From assembly GCF_002854065.1 (NCBI RefSeq), contig NZ_CP024147.1: a stretch of 64,000 nt of DNA; one strand, 5' to 3'. The notes beneath the pieces were generated by a model. The model did no database searches. It was not told the origin of the DNA and was given only the letters and a program-made list of their open reading frames with translations. This document shows positions 28,383 to 44,477 of the stretch, one piece after another. The translations under genes and the position numbers were made by a program. The first letter of the stretch is position 1. The number at the start of each line of letters is the position of its first letter. Source of the stretch: Escherichia coli (GTDB lineage Bacteria > Pseudomonadota > Gammaproteobacteria > Enterobacterales > Enterobacteriaceae).

Positions 28383-28459
28383 GGAGCGGTAGTTCAGTCG
28401 GTTAGAATACCTGCCTGTCACGCAGGGGGTCGCGGGTTCGAGTCCCGTCCGTTCCGCCA
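28383..28459 (+). tRNA. aspV: tRNA-Asp (GTC); integration site of the downstream island
   Basis: Identical 77-nt sequence to aspU at 20158-20234. Confidence 0.97.
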
Positions 28460-30676: not shown

Positions 30677-32523
30677 GTCATAATTTTACCGCGCTGCATG
30701 CTGTGCAGCGTCATCTGCGAGAAGGTATTAATGGAAACATGGCGGGCGATATAGTGTTCCAGCACCAGGCCGAACAGATACGGACTGATGCCGGAAAAAC
30801 CTTCTTCATCCACCGTCAGTTCACAACTGACGCCACGCCCATAGACCAGTAGTCCGGAACCGGGCAGACGGCGGGTGACCGGGGTCGTTTTACAACCAAT
30901 CAGGCTGCGCACCTGGCGCGATTGCGGACTGTCATGAGCAGGAATAAACAGGTTCAGCAGATCTCGCAACGCCTGGCCGCCGGTACGGTGATCCAGATCG
31001 GCCAGCGGCAGATAATTAAAAGATAACTGGCGGATCAACCGCCATGCCATCTCACGTTCAGCCAGCGGGGGCTGCGGCGAGCGTGGCGGGCGGATAAGCC
31101 CTACGCCCGCCACCGGGATGGCCGCATCCACGGTTAGATCGTCCCGGCCATTGCGGGCAATAAGACAGGGCAGATCGCGGTTAGTGACCATGGCCGTGAT
31201 GGTGATGTGGCGCAGATTTTCCGGGTACGGCGCTTCATACTGGTCAACCAGCGACAGGAACACTTCCGAGCCCGTATAGGGGGTACGGGTGCCGTAACGG
31301 CGGGCGTTTTCTGATAAGCGGCGGGGCTCCCGGCGCAGGGAAAAATAACGTCCGTGATTGCCTTCATCATTATTGCGGGTGTGGTAGAGCGGGCGAAAGG
31401 CCATCTTCCGTGTGGTGTCGGTTTCCAGCCCTTCCACTTCCTGGACCGAGAACACCTCATAATCCAGCGGATGGGTTCTGTCCACCACCAGATGCTGTTC
31501 CGTCGTGCTGTGCGTGACATCGATCCGGGCGGTGACGCGGGGAAACAGGTTGATAACCGGGGTACAGAACAGGCTGAACTGTGCCGCATTTGTCTGGTGG
31601 ATCAGCCAGTCCGGCGGCAGGCGGTTCAGCAGGATAACAATCTCCGCCACGCCACCGTCAATTTTCTGTAATCCGGCAGACAGGCCTGTCGGGGTGAAAA
31701 AATAGAAGCGTTCCGGACAGGCAAAATATTCATGCAGCAGGTTATGACCGTGAAACACGTTCCACGCCAGCGGCAGCAGCCCCTGATCCGGCTCCAGGCC
31801 TTCGTACATAACGGGCTGTTGCAGATTCACATCCAGCGCGCCGTCAAAATGTCCCGGAATGCCAGCCAGGGTCGCGATGGCGCTGGTATGTAGAAGTTCT
31901 AACATGTGTGAGGCCGTACGCTCCTCGCCGCAGAGATAAAACGGCAGCCTATCCAGTCCTGCAAGCTGACTGAATGTTAGTTCACCAAAGGTGCGCAGGG
32001 TAATACGCAGCGCCCCGGCGACGTGAATGTTGGCCGGCAGGTAGCGGTGCAGGGCAGGCATATCCGGTGGCGCGGCGGTCAGTCGCGCCTCTTCGATGGC
32101 GAGCGGCCACAGCGTTACATCCTGGCTGCTGCGAAACTGGCAGGCAGTGCTTTCGCCTTCCGGAATGGCGGAGAAAAAGGCCGTGTCGCGCGGGACGGTA
32201 AATCCTTTCGCCAGATCGCCTTCTTCCGTATCGGGATGCAACTGCGCCACGCTCATTGAGGGCGTGGGTGTGACGTAATTGGGGCTGACCACTTCCAGCA
32301 GGCGCTGGGTGAAACGGGGGAATTCAGCGTCAATTTTTAGCTGCGTGCGGGCGGTCAGGAAGCTGAAGGCCTCGACCATTCGCTCTACATACGGATCGGC
32401 AATATCCGTTCCCTGCATGCCCAGCCGGGCGGCGACTTTGGGATGACGGGCGGCAAATTCGGCTCCCGTTTCCCGCAGATAGCTCAGTTCGCGGTTGTAG
32501 TATTCCAGTAGCCGTGGATCCAT
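30640..32523 (-). CDS. tssF: T6SS baseplate protein TssF
   Basis: 627-aa ORF; N-terminus MDPRLLEYYNRELSYLRETGAEFAARHPKVAARLG… is typical of TssF. Confidence 0.75.
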   Translation of the reverse strand: MDPRLLEYYNRELSYLRETGAEFAARHPKVAARLGMQGTDIADPYVERMVEAFSFLTARTQLKIDAEFPRFTQRLLEVVSPNYVTPTPSMSVAQLHPDTEEGDLAKGFTVPRDTAFFSAIPEGESTACQFRSSQDVTLWPLAIEEARLTAAPPDMPALHRYLPANIHVAGALRITLRTFGELTFSQLAGLDRLPFYLCGEERTASHMLELLHTSAIATLAGIPGHFDGALDVNLQQPVMYEGLEPDQGLLPLAWNVFHGHNLLHEYFACPERFYFFTPTGLSAGLQKIDGGVAEIVILLNRLPPDWLIHQTNAAQFSLFCTPVINLFPRVTARIDVTHSTTEQHLVVDRTHPLDYEVFSVQEVEGLETDTTRKMAFRPLYHTRNNDEGNHGRYFSLRREPRRLSENARRYGTRTPYTGSEVFLSLVDQYEAPYPENLRHITITAMVTNRDLPCLIARNGRDDLTVDAAIPVAGVGLIRPPRSPQPPLAEREMAWRLIRQLSFNYLPLADLDHRTGGQALRDLLNLFIPAHDSPQSRQVRSLIGCKTTPVTRRLPGSGLLVYGRGVSCELTVDEEGFSGISPYLFGLVLEHYIARHVSINTFSQMTLHSMQRGKIMTWPVRAGQRGSV

Positions 32524-36448: not shown

Positions 36449-36539
36449 CTGTTCTCCAATGACTAGTCTAAAAACTAGTATTAAGACTATCACTTATTTA
36501 AGTGATATTGGTTGTCTGGAGATTCAGGGGGCCAGTCTA

Positions 36540-39390
36540 CGAACTGACGCATTGGTTGCATCAGTTAATACAACAACCAGAGAATGACATTCACAATGTG
36601 CTTCGACATTATCAAATAACATCTGCTGATGTTGAGAAGGCGTTAATTCAGCAATTGAATATATTGCCTGCCGGAGCGAGTGTAATTAACGATTTTTCCC
36701 ATCATATCGATCTTTCTGTTGAAAAAGCCTGGATGTTGGCAAGTATCCGCTTTGGCGATCAAAAAATTCGTAGTGGATGGTTATTACTTGCCTGGTTAAC
36801 CACGCCAGAATTGTGTCGGGTGTTAAAAAATATTTGTGCGCCATTGGCAGAGCTACCGGTAGATGAACTATTAGATATTCTTCCGTCTTTAATCACTTCA
36901 TCTCCTGAATTAACAGAAATGCCTTATGACGGCTCGGATTTAAATTCTGCAGTACCGGGGGAAGCTAGCCAGGTCTTTGCCGGCGAATCAACTGGAAGCA
37001 AATCCGCGCTGGCGAAATACTGTCAGGACATGACTGCGCTGGCCCGTGAAGGCAATATCGATCCGGTCACCGGTCGCGAACACGAGATCCGTACTATGAC
37101 GGATATTCTGCTGCGCCGTCGCCAGAACAACCCGCTACTGACCGGCGAAGCGGGAGTCGGGAAAACGGCAGTGGTGGAAGGATTCGCGCTGGCGATTGCC
37201 GGGGGGGAAGTACCGCCTTCACTGCGTAACGTGCGGTTGCTTTCACTGGATGTTGGCGCGCTGCTGGCTGGGGCGTCCATGAAGGGTGAGTTTGAATCTC
37301 GCCTGAAAGCGTTGCTGGAAGAGGCCGCGCACTCGCCGCAGCCGGTAATCCTTTTTGTTGATGAAGTTCACACGCTGGTGGGCGCTGGTGGGCGCTGGTG
37401 GTACATCCGGCACCGTCGCATCACGGGCAGTGTGCAGTCCTGGCAGTATACGCCGCGCGGGCTGCTGGCGCTCCATACGGATGAAGAGAAACGGGAGACG
37501 CGCTGGCAGTACACCCCGGAAGGGCTGGTTGCCAGTCTGAGCAACGGCAATGGGGCTCAGTACCGGTTCAGCTACGACGGCGACGGACGGCTGACGGGAG
37601 AACAGCGCCCGGACGGTCTGATACGGATGTTTGCGCTGAATGCGGGCGGGTTCCCGGTCATCATCCAGACGCAGGGCACAGAAGGAGGGATGCGTAATGA
37701 GCGACAGGAGCGTGATGCGCTGGGCCGCCTGCTGCGCAGTGACACGCAGCACAGTACACGGACCTTCAGCTACAACCGTCTTGACCAGATAACGGAAGTG
37801 ACGCTCACCCCCACGGAAGAAGGGGAACGGCTGCACCACATGCAGGCGGACAGGGTGCGCTTTGCGTATGACCGCAGCGGCTGGCTGACGGCAGAGCACA
37901 GCGTGCACGGCAGCATAAAGTACCGGCGCGATGCGCTGGGCAATCCCACCGATATCACCTTACCGGACGGGCAGCATCTCAGCCATCTTTACTACGGCAG
38001 CGGGCATCTGCTCCAGACGGCACTGGACGGTATCACGGTCAGCGAATATGAGCGTGACAGTCTGCACCGTCAGGTGATACGCACGCAGGGGAAACTGGCG
38101 ACGTTCAGCGGCTACAACGCCGACAACCGGTTAAGCTGGCAGCGCAGCCTGCCAGGTGGCAGCCAGAATCCACAGCAGGCCGGTACTCCCCCGGCGCAGA
38201 ACGACAGCGTGACGGCGCGGGACTATATCTGGAACGCAGACGGTGAAGTCGGCGGCATCAATGACAAACTGCGCGGTTGCCTGGTGTTCAGCTATGACCG
38301 CAGCGGCTGGCTGACCAGCCGCACGGGGCAGATGTATGACCATGACCATTATTATTACGATAAAGCGGGCAACCTGCTGACGGATGAGTATCAGGGAGCG
38401 GTGCTGGACAACCGCCTGCCGGGCTACGGGCGTGACCGTTACCGCTATAACGAATGGGGCGAACTGACAGAGCGCAGGGACCAGCAGCTGGAGTGGAACG
38501 CGCAGGGCCAGTTAACGCGGGTCATCAGCAGCAACAGCGAGACGCGGTATCAGTACGATGCGCTGGGCAGGCGCATCATCAAGGCGACCAGCAATCTCCA
38601 TACCGACCGGGGAGAACGAAGCCGGACAACGTTTGTGTGGGAAGGGTTCCGGCTGTTGCAGGAGACAACGTGGCAGGGAAAGCGGACATACCTGTACGAC
38701 GCGGAACAGCCGTACACGCCGGTGGCGGCCATCACCGGGCGCGGAGAGAGTCAAAAAATCTGGTATTACCATACGGACCTGACGGGCACGGTACAGGAGG
38801 TGACCGCGCCGGACGGGACGCTGGTGTGGGCGGGCTACCAGGCGGGATTTGGTGAAAACCGGGGCGACATCAGCAACAGCGGGGCGTACTTTGAACAGCC
38901 GCTGCGGCTGCCGGGGCAGTATTATGATGAAGAGACGGGGCTGCACTATAATCTGTTCAGATATTATGCGCCGGAGTGCGGGAGGTTCATAAGTCAGGAT
39001 CCGATAGGGCTGGCGGGTGGAATAAACCTCTATGCTTATGCTCCTAACCCAATTAGCTGGATCGATCCCTTTGGACTGGATTTACACCATATAATACAGC
39101 AAGAAATTTGGAAGGAGTTCAAAACAGATCTTAAAAAAGTCACCGGATATGTACAAAATGTCACGAAAAAGGCAGCCGACATGACAAACCTAATCGATCT
39201 GGATAAACCTTTTCATGGTAATCACCCAGCTTATAGTCAATATGTAAGAGAAGCAATCGAAGACCTGAAGGCTAATAATAACTTAACGTTGAAAGGATTA
39301 AGAGATTTACAAGATGATCTTAAAAAGAAAATAGGTGAAGCTCAAAAGTCTGGCAAAAATCTAAATGATTATTTTAAATCGGGGTGCTGA
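36540..39390 (+). CDS. chimeric ORF: 5'-truncated ClpV/TssH N-domain and AAA+ D1 Walker A region fused in frame to an Rhs YD-repeat core with a C-terminal toxin domain
   Basis: Residues …[13 protein letters not shown]…[13 protein letters not shown] are ClpV-like, then YD-repeat sequence (…[13 protein letters not shown]…), then the DPFGL junction and a roughly 110-aa C-terminal tip; no native start codon, as the track start lies inside the IS2 inverted repeat. Confidence 0.75.
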
Positions 39391-39845
39391 TTATGAGATA
39401 CAAAAAGGTAACTGTTTCTTATGAGCCTGCAATCACAGGAAATAGTAAAGGAGGGTATTCAGTAGAAATAAAAGATAGACTCTCTTTTAATAGTCCTACG
39501 GAGAGAAAATACTTTGAGTCTTTTTTTGAAAATAATGATGAAAACTATAATAGAGTTTTTATCAATAATTTTGAAACTATTGATACAGTTTATCTAAAAA
39601 ATTTAATTTTATTTCCAAAACAAAAAAGGATAAAGGAAATTGATATGCTAATATTTTCCCCGCACAAACTCGGACTTAGTTTTATGATATCGGAGAAATT
39701 ATATAATATTATAACTAAATTTAAACTTCCTCCGTTCAATAAGATACCAGCTCAAATCAATACATTCAATACGAAGTATTTTTTGATCGGTTTCCCAATG
39801 ATACCAAAAGAAAGAATTGATTTAGATAAATCTATATTTTTTTGA
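39384..39845 (+). CDS. putative Rhs immunity protein (cognate to the toxin tip at 39060-39390)
   Basis: 153-aa AT-rich ORF whose ATG overlaps the rhs stop (ATGA); typical toxin/immunity arrangement. Confidence 0.6.
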
Positions 39846-41038
39846 TACAAAAAAAAGAAGTGAATTTAATTTCAAATCATATGATGAATTCATCAAAATG
39901 GATTACTCTATTATACCTAAAAAAATATACCCAGATGTATTTTATGATGTCGATGTTATCGGTTTTCAGGGCAAAGGGCTATTTTTTTCTGACAGACTGC
40001 TTGATGCAATACAAAATGCCGGGATTGTAGGGTTGCATATCGGTGACACGGAAATGGAAATGAATCCGTAGATTGATACAGGAACTTTCACTTTTAAAGG
40101 GATCTTTGGTGTCTGCGATTTTATCTTTCTGTTGGTTATTTAGCAATCCGGGAACGATATTAATCCGCTGAAGATCCTGATTTATCTACGGGGTAAATGC
40201 CCGAAATATAGAAGGTTTTATATTGGATCATATGAAAGGGGATCTTAACCTTGAAAATGCCATCAGGAAAGATGGTGGATTTTATCATAGTTATAATGAA
40301 AATAATCTTGCAGAGGGACGAAAATATTTAAGCACGGAAGAAATTAGCAAAATCCTCGAAAAGGGTAGTGTAACTGATGTTGATAGTAAAGGGCACTTTA
40401 AAGCAGGAGGATGTTGAATGAATAGTATAATAAATAAAAATATAAAAAAATAGATATGATTACTAAGGGTATTAAAAAATATCCTCTTGGAGAGGACAAG
40501 CAAGAGATCTCAAAATTAATTTGCGATTTTGAAAAAATGCCACGTAAAGAATGTAGTGTGTTTTATGGTGTTTTTTTTAATGATAGTGAACTAGTAGATA
40601 AATTAATTAAGATTGCAAGATTTTATGAGGGTGATGATAAAATAACCATAAACGTAATATCCTCTTTGGGAAATATGTTCGTGCGATACAAAATATATCC
40701 ATCAGAAGAATTATATAATCTTTTTTTTCAACTTGAAAAGTAAGAGGAAAGTTAATTATTATGTTTCTTTGTTCATTTTTAGATTTCCTCAATTTAGGAA
40801 TTATAAATTTAAATGGGACTATATTTTATCTATTCCAGATATTTCACCAAAAGATAAATCAAAAAGAAACTTTTACTCTATAGTCAATAATATCGTTTTG
40901 TCGGGAGAAACGATCCCTGTTGAGTATAAAAATAGAGTTATTAGCTTGCTGGAAATGTTTAGTAAGGGAAATATGGGAAGCGTGTATAATGATGAATATA
41001 TAGATTTAATTAATAGGCTAGTTAAGCAACACGGCTAA
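39846..41038 (+). other. AT-rich array of degenerate orphan toxin-tip and immunity ORFs (39898-40071, 40223-40417, 40456-40743, 40733-41038)
   Basis: Short ORFs in shifting frames, homopolymer A/T runs at frame breaks, and a degenerate Rhs junction-like sequence near 40160-40195. Confidence 0.45.
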
Positions 41039-41322
41039 GTCGGAACGTAATAATCTCGGTGAATATTGGTTTTTATTCTCCCGGATCTCCGCCAGTACTA
41101 ACAGGCGAAAATCCGGGAGGACTGATATTACGGCTGGATAATATCGTCAATAAACACCACACCATCAGTAGTACGCAACCAGCGCGGCGCTTTCAGTTTT
41201 GCCGCAAAGAACCAGATCAGTTCACAAAGCAGCCCCGTCAGGGGTTGTTCCATTTTAGATCCCTGCGCCTGTTCCGTCAGGATCTGGAGTAATACCTCGC
41301 AATATTCACACAATTGTAGTGG

Positions 41323-42735
<1,413 letters not shown>

Positions 42736-42973
42736 TGACACTCTATAAGAGTTTCAGCGAAGCGATCGCAGTGATCGGCCAGGTCTGTGAAATCGGTGGC
42801 AGAACTGAAAGGAATGGACAGTAAATCATAATCAGGGGTGAGGATTGTAGCCATAAGGCAACCTCCGATAAGTAGGCGTTAAAACCACCACCGAAGAGAC
42901 CAATCTTACGGGTGGTGGAATCGGGCGGAGTTGGTCTTACCGGCCTTATCGGATACCGGCGCATCTTTCGATG

Positions 42974-43811
42974 CTGGCAGGGAAAGCGGACATACCTGTA
43001 CGACGCGGAACAGCCGTACACGCCGGTGGCGGCCATCACGGGGCGCGGAGAGAGCCAGAAAATCTGGTATTACCACACGGACCTGACGGGCACGGTACAC
43101 GAGGTAACCGCGCCGGACGGGACGCTGGTGTGGGCGGGCTACCAGGCGGGATTTGGTGAAAACCGGGGCGACATCAGCAACAGCGGGGCGTACTTTGAGC
43201 AGCCGCTGCGGCTGCCGGGGCAGTATTATGATGAAGATACGGGGCTGCACTATAATCTGTTCAGATATTATGCGCCGGAGTGCGGGCGGTTTATCAGTCA
43301 GGACCCGATAGGGCTGGCGGGAGGAATAAACCTATATGCTTATGCGCCTAATCCGCTAAGTTATATTGATCCTCTTGGGCTTTGTAAATTAAGGGGAAGC
43401 GATGGGCGCTACAGAAGTGCACAGAATATTCAGGAAGAAATAGGCGGCCTACCCAATTTTGCAGGAAAAACTCCAGGAGAAATACGACAAACTTTGCGTA
43501 ATCGAGGTTATTCGTCGGTACAAGCGTATAGTGGAGGAGAGGTCTGGACAAAAGCATTACCTGACGGAAATACTGTTGCAGTGAGGCTTGATCCGGCAAA
43601 TCCTCGCTCACCTTCACATTATGCTGATGCTGTACCTCATGCTCATATTGAAACAGTTCCAACATCCAGTGTTTCTAATGGGAATTATCGCCCGCGAGAC
43701 GTGACTGGCAGGCATACTGCCACTGGTGGGGTTTCTGATCGAGGAACAAATCCGAATCATAACGCTGATGTTTACATTCCAATGTCTCCGGGACGATTCC
43801 CATATGATTAA
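42974..43811 (+). CDS. orphan Rhs C-terminal fragment (conserved core end plus alternative toxin tip); no upstream rhs body
   Basis: About 400 bp that are nearly identical to 38672-39070 by eye (core end through the DPxGL junction), followed by a different roughly 140-aa C-terminal domain. Confidence 0.7.
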
Positions 43812-43822
43812 TGTGAGGTTTT

Positions 43823-44086
43823 ATGAATATCCGAAATCAATATAATGAAGCCTTAAATAAATTAGAAGTTGATGTTAATGATGGTTTGAGAGATTTAATA
43901 AACATATATTGTGTGGCTATTGATTCTTTTGAAAATGATATCGTTGACTCGATTGCTTTATACGTGATTGATATGGGAAATAAAGATACTTGTCGATATC
44001 TACAAGAAGTCTTATCAGAGAATGAAGATCCTTATTTAGTAAAAGAATTTAATGCATGGATAAAAGAAATTAAGAAAAAATATTAA
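43823..44086 (+). CDS. putative immunity protein for the orphan Rhs toxin tip
   Basis: 87-aa AT-rich ORF 11 bp downstream of the toxin-tip stop. Confidence 0.55.
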   Translation: MNIRNQYNEALNKLEVDVNDGLRDLINIYCVAIDSFENDIVDSIALYVIDMGNKDTCRYLQEVLSENEDPYLVKEFNAWIKEIKKKY

Positions 44087-44091
44087 AATAA

Positions 44092-44133
44092 AAGCCGGGA
44101 AGGTTATAAAATCTTCCCGGCTTTTTATTTTTA
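44092..44133. terminator. bidirectional rho-independent terminator
   Basis: agccgggaag…cttcccggct stem flanked by A- and T-runs, between convergent ORFs. Confidence 0.75.
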
Positions 44134-44364
44134 ATTCTCGTTCAGTACACTAAACATCCCGTCCCGCATCCCCTTAACCGCCTGTTTAACCTGATAAAGT
44201 TCCCTGCGCAGTTCCTGTACTTCGTTGTTATCGGCAAGCAGGATCAGGCAGCCTTCCGAGATCTTCACAGTAACGCCCGTGCCGATCGAAAATTCCGCTT
44301 CTCTCAGCCATTTGGCGCTGATTTTGATCACCGGCGTGTCGCTGCTGTTGGGCAGATATCCCAC
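44131..44364 (-). CDS. SymE-like (AbrB-fold) toxin homolog
   Basis: 77-aa ORF …ISAKWLREAEFSIGTGVTVKISEGCLILL… resembles the SymE/SpoVT-AbrB swapped-hairpin family. Confidence 0.5.
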   Translation of the reverse strand: MGYLPNSSDTPVIKISAKWLREAEFSIGTGVTVKISEGCLILLADNNEVQELRRELYQVKQAVKGMRDGMFSVLNEN

Positions 44365-44477
44365 GGTACAACGGCGTTGTGTTTTGGAAATGGTGACTTC
44401 TGGCGTAATATCATGTTTAAGTTAGGGGCTTTCGTAGTCATACCCCGACTCTCCCCGGCCCTAAACACAACCCCCAC

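Follow-up and report, generated by a model that had tools for sequence, protein, structure and literature searches.

We analyzed a 64-kb stretch of the Escherichia coli genome (NZ_CP024147.1, assembly GCF_002854065.1), hereafter the window; all coordinates are positions within it. Its gene order is rrnH, housekeeping genes up to dnaQ, aspV, the island of type VI secretion system 1 (T6SS-1), and then yafV, ivy, and fadE. The tRNA-Asp gene aspV (28383-28459) is the flank of the island opposite yafV. At the distal, yafV end of this decayed aspV-yafV island, positions 42975-44125 are an orphan rhs-CT/rhsI module: the end of an Rhs core that continues into a toxin tip, followed by a small open reading frame (ORF) and a terminator. 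The identity of the locus was read from synteny with annotated genomes.

The Rhs part of the module (42975-43382, + strand) comprises the last ~136 core codons through PNPLSYIDPLGL, which is a PxxxxDPxGL end, and belongs to NCBIfam RHS_core, Rhs_assc_core (TIGR03696), and Pfam RHS. In the 299-aa ORF that contains core end and tip (42912-43811), positions 1154-1261 of the 1,261 positions of RHS_core match residues 48-157, and TIGR03696 matches residues 90-157, so that the orphan Rhs core end called in a first-pass annotation of this DNA is borne out. These are the sole Rhs matches in NCBIfam, and the N-terminal delivery region and the repeats are absent from the ORF. It opens at a GTG codon at 42912 and has in-frame CTG and GTG codons; its start-codon list contains no in-frame ATG ahead of the tip.

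The same annotation had proposed that 42.9-43.4 kb repeats 38.6-39.1 kb at high identity, and the alignment agrees. A repeat search found one direct-repeat family (38671-38970 and 42975-43274, 97%). Counted base by base, these first 300 bp have 8 mismatches (97.3%), and 38671-39048 and 42975-43352 differ at 16 of 378 bp (95.8% identity); the copies lie 4304 bp apart in direct orientation and share perfect runs of 92 and 65 bp. Identity falls to 92.9% at 410 bp, and similarity is gone past ~43384; for the upstream core-end copy as a whole (38671-39074, + strand), it is 93.8% over 404 bp. The 60 bp 5' of the two copies are unrelated (13/60 identical). Within the window, there are exactly two copies of the core end and one each of the tip and of the ORF behind it. 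Both core ends are in frame, with two amino-acid differences before the PNP motif, and both run through PNP(I/L)S(W/Y)IDP(F/L)GL; beyond DPxGL, the proteins cannot be aligned.

Past the repeat comes a second, different tip, which had been put at ~140 aa and is 142 aa plus a stop codon (43383-43811, + strand; CKLRGSDGRY...GRFPYD), unrelated to the AHH tip of the upstream copy. Its G+C content is 46%, against 60% in the core, and its isoelectric point is 9.2. Eleven nucleotides past the tip stop codon begins an ORF for a putative cognate immunity protein of 87 aa (43823-44086, + strand), with a Shine-Dalgarno sequence, GAGG, at 43815-43818, four bases before the ATG. The gene has a G+C content of 26%, and the protein is acidic (isoelectric point, 4.4); its AlphaFold2 model consists of five helices, with a predicted local distance difference test score (pLDDT) of 94.7. 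The strong terminator that had been noted behind this ORF is there as well: a bidirectional intrinsic terminator at 44090-44125, with a 16-bp stem, a folding energy of -26.9 kcal/mol, and a z score of -7.8 against shuffled sequences. It can serve both strands because a run of A precedes the stem and a run of T follows it, and it is shared by the immunity gene (+) and a convergent symE-like gene (-).

The module is present in other strains. Positions 42600-44400 are 100% identical to strain CUWW06; from 42975 onward, the sequence is identical in F2_81 and 99.9% identical in PE164. In E105, the core end is 100% identical over 42975-43400, and the tip and the immunity gene are also identical. Of six annotated records that we inspected, four (CUWW06, F2_81, E2348/69, and E105) have no RefSeq annotation for the tip. 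The usual layout of the yafV site in related strains begins with vgrG, a DcrB-like chaperone gene, and a full-length rhs gene with its immunity gene; it continues with a small minus-strand gene and then one or more orphan rhs fragments, each carrying a tip, an immunity gene, and a convergent symE-family gene, up to yafV. Relative to F2_81 and E105, the orphan fragment of the window has been trimmed to 405 bp by a deletion of ~5.2 kb, whose junction is exactly 42974/42975. The junction forms the right edge of a spacer (42570-42974, - strand) that holds a decayed minus-strand hypothetical gene. This spacer is 97% identical to parts of the related loci L002 (4400-4803), L013 (834-1237), and L004 (10118-10522), and by blastn mapping the next matching base lies ~5.2 kb further on in L002. 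The spacer gene is annotated as a pseudogene in CUWW06. Its intact version encodes ~154 aa (e.g., L004 9938-10402) and has no family match; in related strains, the main immunity gene is on one side of it and the first orphan rhs fragment on the other.

The structural features expected of an orphan module are found here. The fragment sits downstream of the main rhs in the same orientation and has a near-identical core end, and its tip differs from the main tip and also ends a full-length Rhs protein elsewhere; the caveat is that what counts as the "main" gene here is likewise truncated, a ClpV'-Rhs chimera. The full-length protein is the Rhs of E. coli JNE151685 (WP_286347636.1; L011 4701-9431), which is intact, 1577 aa long, and ends in a tip 96.5% identical to ours. 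Its N terminus is of the prePAAR type (AARxxDxxxH) and has hydrophobic helices, and its gene is preceded by one for a DcrB-related chaperone. When 5.8 billion proteins were searched by word index, only nine relatives of the tip came back, all of them short fragments, which suggested that the tip is always an orphan; the genome search overturned this idea with the JNE151685 protein.

The first-pass annotation could not assign the tip to a toxin family, and the standard family libraries are indeed empty in this regard. For the orphan ORF, the tip, and 32 sequences of the tip-domain family, Pfam-A and NCBIfam scans gave, outside the Rhs core, only weak PASTA and RecX noise. Precomputed Pfam assignments are empty for those close relatives whose sequence extends over the toxin domain, and sequence searches of the PDB with the tip (one single-sequence and two profile searches) returned nothing meaningful. 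An exhaustive profile search of 1.84 billion representatives, in contrast to these scans, recovered 121 proteins at E<=1e-3, 80 of them at E<=1e-10, each representing a cluster at 50% identity. In nearly all members, the domain ends 0 to 5 residues from the C terminus. The carriers comprise Rhs cores, PAAR, Tox-PAAR-like, the core domain of extracellular contractile injection systems (eCIS; DUF4157), and DUF6861; some members are very long, up to 5789 aa, and a weak Fil_haemagg repeat match occurs in 1 of 20 scanned members, all 20 shorter than 1200 aa. The tip family is a genuine cargo domain of polymorphic toxins. Its consensus reads ...GK.kaEIe..L...GYt.v.a.sGG.VWTK..pDGnTaaVRiDP...R.pp.g.ADEvpHaHKE.VpT..V.nGNY.....t..DD.G......d.HIP. 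All 85 aligned sequences have both R and D in VRxDP as well as the first H of HxH; 84 have the second H and the E of HxHKE, and 80 have the HIP histidine; the invariant or near-invariant residues are thus R, D, H, H, E, GNY, and H. In the window, the VRLDP motif lies at 43581-43595 and HAHIE, for the consensus HxHKE, at 43638-43652 (both + strand).

Remote-homology searches now place the tip beside the PT7 DNase toxins. PT7, a short polymorphic toxin, has a new fold, which is seen in PDB entry 8OWU, the complex of PT7(Bc) D37A from Bacillus cereus with PIM7. Upon PT7 expression, nucleoids contract or vanish; mutant proteins degrade plasmid and genomic DNA with Mg2+, an activity blocked by EDTA, and leave tRNA uncut; and toxicity is wholly lost in the D37A, H47A, and H73A mutants (Nachmias et al., bioRxiv 10.1101/2021.10.19.465003, including supplementary Table S11). 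We partly rebuilt the PT7 sequence from mutagenesis primers and recovered its family via P0128 ("transposase [Bacillus cereus]," 78 aa). With small alignments, hhalign joined the tip family to PT7 at an E value of 0.0056; with 85 and 21 sequences, respectively, the E value was 1e-4 in local mode (probability, 58%) and 2.6e-6 in global mode (probability, 76%), the latter covering all of PT7. The alignment pairs, in the same order, RID37P of PT7 with VRxDP, H47-V-H49 with HxH, and H73-I-P with HIP, so that the Asp of the window's VRLDP aligns with PT7 Asp37 and the first His of HAHIE with PT7 His47. An AlphaFold model of the tip, built from seven close relatives, has a pLDDT of 74 and a predicted template modeling score of 0.74, with block means of 74 to 89 over residues 11-100; PT7 is by far its best structural match and is almost fully covered. 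Since the predicted fold, motif order, and experimentally critical residues appear to agree, we place the tip next to PT7, and it is more likely than not a PT7-like metal-dependent DNase.

The Asp37, His47, and His73 positions of PT7 are conserved in the tip family as a whole; the window copy keeps the Asp and the first His and departs from the family at the third position. There, a TAC codon (43773-43775, + strand) places Tyr131 of the tip, within DVYIPM, where the alignment has the HIP histidine. Among the aligned family members, His occupies this position in 80 of 85, and the window copy is the sole Tyr. The codon is CAC, for His, in L003 and L005-L012, which include JNE151685, 06-00048, E2348/69, three Enterobacterales loci (L008-L010), Brenneria, and Pectobacterium. 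The Tyr allele is common to the yafV-locus orphans of CUWW06, F2_81, E105, and PE164 and to metagenomic cluster P0005; its presence in several strains and in a metagenomic cluster means that it is not a sequencing error. Because PT7 H73A is nontoxic, Tyr131 would be expected to abolish or strongly attenuate activity, and it is probably an inactivating substitution specific to the yafV-locus orphan allele.

That the tip's own immunity gene follows it, as had been suggested, is supported by conserved adjacency and by codivergence. A homolog of the 87-aa ORF lies 8 to 14 nt 3' of the tip in all 13 related loci fetched (Escherichia, Brenneria, and Pectobacterium). In P0010, where the tip is 64% identical and is itself an orphan in an array, the next ORF is 41% identical to the 87-aa ORF. 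The protein has no match in Pfam or NCBIfam, and its role as cognate immunity protein is putative, read from gene context. A UniRef label of "MafI family immunity protein" on a 90%-identical cluster was set aside, no model supporting it; a PIM7-like fold was likewise rejected, the model being all-helical. Its homologs form 45 clusters in Enterobacterales, one of them on at least 1000 contigs, and are far commoner than toxin clusters. Among 5426 complete E. coli genomes, 21 have tip and immunity gene and 14 the immunity gene only. We inspected one of the latter, PapM-32-1: it has lost the toxin but retains an intact 87-aa homolog (L014 5041-5304; ~89% DNA identity) directly next to yafV and downstream of an ISAs1 element. 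In the other 13, the query aligned through its immunity-gene part only. The immunity gene is also intact beside a frameshifted toxin in E2348/69 and downstream of a tip split by an rve-type insertion sequence (IS) in Pectobacterium brasiliense (L005 6338-7986). This Pectobacterium locus is a vgrG/DUF4123/Tox-REase-5/PAAR effector island.

What surrounds the module bears on its use. The T6SS genes left between aspV and yafV are only tssA, tssG, tssF, tssE, a tagJ remnant, tagK, and a clpV fragment; a search of this interval found no vgrG, hcp, tssB/C, tssK/L/M, or Eag chaperone gene. The island is unable to build a T6SS. The upstream core end belongs to an in-frame chimera (36502-39390, + strand; NCBIfam), a 962-aa ORF that starts directly behind an IS2 element (35.1-36.5 kb) and joins residues matching ClpV/TssH (VI_ClpV1, TIGR03345; aa 13-298; E, 1e-99) to Rhs YD repeats, the core end (RHS_core and Rhs_assc_core on aa 750-859), and a tip of the AHH nuclease family (Pfam PF14412; E, 3e-10). 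This ORF contains neither a prePAAR/PAAR N terminus nor a VgrG-binding region; it is a deletion chimera, a pseudogene, and not a deliverable Rhs.

On a full-length Rhs protein, the tip would be encapsulated by the Rhs shell, released after DPxGL, and delivered by the T6SS, steps that we infer from established Rhs biology and the PT7 data. In the target, it would act as a Mg-dependent, PT7-like DNase and degrade DNA, with the Asp of VRxDP, the histidines of HxH(K)E, and the C-terminal HIP histidine as the predicted active site; the producer would be protected by the acidic five-helix 87-aa protein, which would bind and block the tip. In this strain, the module is unusable for attack, given that it lacks a delivery domain and an evident translation start, that its only recombination partner is a ClpV'-Rhs chimera, that most T6SS genes are lost, and that the tip carries Tyr131. 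Overall, the explanation we favor, and consider reasonably probable, is that of an orphan module whose PT7-like tip is disabled here and has no use in attack, while its immunity gene likely remains useful. The immunity gene is probably the only working part of the module, and it is most plausibly the part that is still useful, as protection against neighbors that deploy an active toxin.

Several observations weigh against parts of this explanation. Foldseek of the tip model against the PDB did not recover 8owu (best E, 0.29), HMMER profiles do not bridge the tip family and PT7, the hhalign probability is only 58 to 76%, and confidence in the tip model is moderate. For the 87-aa protein, the only matches are to generic helical repeats, and PIM7 is not among them. 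Even the JNE151685 protein, presumably active, belongs to an Escherichia clade that departs from the family consensus (HAHIE, no DD); the clade may thus use a different chemistry, and a Tyr could be acceptable. Finally, that the window module is silent is inference, and internal promoters drive orphan Rhs-CT expression in Salmonella (PMC7043789).

Could the tip be a functional spare, held in reserve until RecA-mediated recombination across the ~400-bp repeat lets the cell deploy it, as in evolved Salmonella LT2? The first-pass annotation saw in the repeat a ready substrate for swapping the tip onto the upstream rhs body. The 378-bp direct repeat at 95.8%, its perfect runs, and the shared orientation and frame of its copies fit this idea, as do an experimental precedent across 522 bp at 95% (PMC3967940), the intact tip ORF, and the occurrence of the tip on a full-length Rhs elsewhere. 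Recombination is thus formally and mechanistically plausible, but the upstream body is the undeliverable ClpV(13-298)-Rhs chimera behind IS2, the aspV-yafV interval has lost vgrG, hcp, tssB/C, tssK/L/M, and the Eag chaperone genes, Tyr stands at the PT7-His73 position, and the orphan core has itself been cut back by the ~5-kb deletion. Because partner and island are defective, a swap would only delete 4.3 kb and arm nothing from this locus: the AHH tip, the intervening immunity-like ORFs, and the IS3-family element would go, leaving a ClpV'-Rhs-tip pseudogene. We regard a deployable spare as very improbable. A type II toxin-antitoxin-like pair, expressed from a promoter within the core end and modulating the growth of its own host, seems quite improbable too. 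Salmonella offers a precedent, in that transcription of main and orphan rhs genes starts 89 nt upstream of the PxxxxDPxGL coding sequence, with CTG or ATG as start codons (PMC7043789); here, the orphan ORF is open from 42912 with in-frame CTG and GTG codons, and the immunity gene has a good Shine-Dalgarno sequence. Against this, a crude sigma-70 consensus scan, a weak negative, found no + strand site within 42975-43380, the only nearby ones being 42805-42832 and 43545-43574 (9/12 consensus matches each); no in-frame ATG precedes the tip; and the change of a predicted catalytic His to Tyr would blunt any toxin effect.

The module with its immunity gene might also be functionless debris that persists by drift. 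The setting invites this thought: the neighborhood has been broken up by deletions and by insertions of IS2 and IS3 and contains a chimeric pseudogene along with a decayed minus-strand gene, the pair of tip and immunity gene occurs in only 21 of the 5426 E. coli genomes, and RefSeq passes over the tip in CUWW06, F2_81, E2348/69, and E105. Yet the immunity ORF survives undamaged next to toxins that are frameshifted or IS disrupted and where the toxin has been deleted (E2348/69, Pectobacterium, and PapM-32-1), the gene is far more widespread than the toxin, with one cluster on at least 1000 contigs, and the protein is only 2 aa away from the copy beside the full-length JNE151685 Rhs; drift of the whole module is therefore unlikely. 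The tip could also be a toxin other than a DNase, with the likeness to PT7 reflecting a shared small alpha/beta scaffold and with RNA or something else as the target; the helical N-terminal extension and the GNY-containing insertion of the family are absent from PT7, the sequence links to PT7 are weak, and Foldseek is negative. However, the three residues required for PT7 toxicity align in order with invariant or near-invariant family residues, and no structural match comes near the almost fully covered PT7, so we hold a non-DNase toxin to be doubtful though conceivable. In a related reading, which we offer tentatively, this unnamed, widespread toxin family (~121 clusters, with Rhs, PAAR, eCIS, and filamentous proteins as carriers) derives from the PT7 fold by enlargement, perhaps with a different substrate or mode, and the Tyr131 allele is a naturally detoxified orphan kept for its linked immunity gene; the extra helix and the GNY insertion are the reason why substrate or mode might differ from the nonspecific DNase activity of PT7.

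Beyond the terminator, the module ends in a SymE-family gene (44131-44364, - strand; 77 aa; Pfam SymE_toxin E, 2.6e-8; NCBIfam SymE E, 5e-9). A convergent symE gene, recognized by RefSeq annotation or by Pfam SymE_toxin hits, typically follows Rhs-CT/immunity modules in related loci (L003, L004, L007, and L008-L013). Antisense to the 5' half of the symE-like gene is a weak isrA-like Rfam match (44261-44344, + strand; 28 bits against a gathering score of 51), which could be a SymR-like antitoxin RNA. Rfam Ssr1 (RF02627) matches 43953-44394 (+ strand) in part, with 249.6 bits against a gathering score of 820; the well-aligned portion is the 3' half of the model, corresponding to the terminator and the antisense of the symE-like gene. 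We rejected Ssr1 as the identity of the 3' part of the module, the score being far below gathering and only that half aligning. The published Ssr1 small RNA locus of Shigella flexneri 301 is flanked by SF0269 and by SF0268, which encodes an Rhs-family protein; judging from this placement, it seems to represent the tail end of a comparable Rhs module.

Between the two core ends, 3' of the AHH tip, 39384-41040 (+ strand) holds AT-rich small ORFs of 153, 57, 64, 95, and 101 aa without a match in Pfam or NCBIfam; they are probably the AHH immunity gene and remnants of other orphan toxin or immunity genes. They are followed by an IS3-family element (41323-42573, - strand), defined by ORF translations, RefSeq annotation in CUWW06, blastn ends, and Rfam, with orfB at 41323-42369, orfA at 42189-42536, and a right end at ~42547-42573. 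Within its left end/orfA leader lies a match to Rfam isrC, an Hfq-binding RNA (42382-42504, - strand; 150 bits against a gathering score of 39). In CUWW06, the same IS has the opposite orientation relative to the orphan. Elsewhere in the island, ARAGORN calls a 94-nt tRNA-His at 30764-30857 (- strand), inside the tssF coding region; this call is likely spurious.

It is already well known that orphan Rhs modules exist and recombine with main genes and that immunity genes can be orphans, and the module has little importance for the biology of this strain, since the locus cannot deliver anything. Our analysis adds a few modest points. It places an unannotated E. coli Rhs tip in a family and proposes a testable active site for it, it gives evidence for an unnamed, fairly widespread cargo domain as an enlarged relative of PT7, and it documents a natural active-site substitution in an orphan allele. 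The PT7 fold, reported from LXG-type toxins and from Firmicutes and Proteobacteria genomes, would thereby extend to T6SS Rhs, PAAR, and eCIS cargo. The locus is also an example of orphan-module decay, in which the toxin gains an active-site change, a frameshift, an IS, or a deletion and the immunity gene stays intact.

Among known systems, PT7(Bc)/PIM7 shares with the tip family the colinear RIDP, HxH, and HIP motifs and the arrangement of a C-terminal polymorphic-toxin cargo followed by a small acidic immunity protein. PT7, however, has 78 aa and is associated with LXG proteins and the type VII secretion system in Firmicutes, whereas the tip domain has ~120 to 140 aa, sits on Rhs, PAAR, or eCIS carriers, and has an extra N-terminal helix and a GNY-bearing insertion (~25 to 30 residues by alignment) that PT7 lacks. 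The immunity proteins differ in fold class, the 87-aa protein of the window being all-helical and PIM7 having an alpha1-betaA loop, and the window allele has Tyr for His73. The JNE151685 locus has the same order of tip, 11-nt gap, immunity gene, and convergent symE, with an immunity gene 97.7% identical; in contrast to the window, it lies at the ybfA-ybgA (rhsC-type) site, has a different core lineage and an intact prePAAR Rhs, and keeps His at HIP.

A close parallel in layout is the rhs-CT orphan (STM0292)/rhsI of Salmonella Typhimurium LT2, likewise a fragment downstream of the main rhs in the same orientation (Koskiniemi et al. 2014, PMC3967940; Starsta et al. 2020, PMC7043789). It has a few hundred base pairs of ~95% identical core end, a different tip with its own immunity gene, and no translation-initiation or export signals, and the repeats are similar in size and identity: ~380 to 400 bp at 94 to 96% in the window and 522 bp at 95% in LT2, across which rhs recombination occurs (PMC3967940). 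In LT2, however, the main rhs and the T6SS are intact and recombination gives a deliverable chimera, whereas the window offers as partner a ClpV'-Rhs pseudogene, and the island around it is gutted; the toxin domains of the two systems are not related, and the window tip has a probable active-site substitution. Orphan immunity arrays at T6SS effector loci, such as those of Vibrio cholerae (PMC5361080), differ in that the toxin ORF of the window is still complete and the protective role of its immunity gene is putative. The likeness lies in immunity that is kept after the effector has been lost or disabled, and it extends to the immunity-only remnants found at the same site in other strains.

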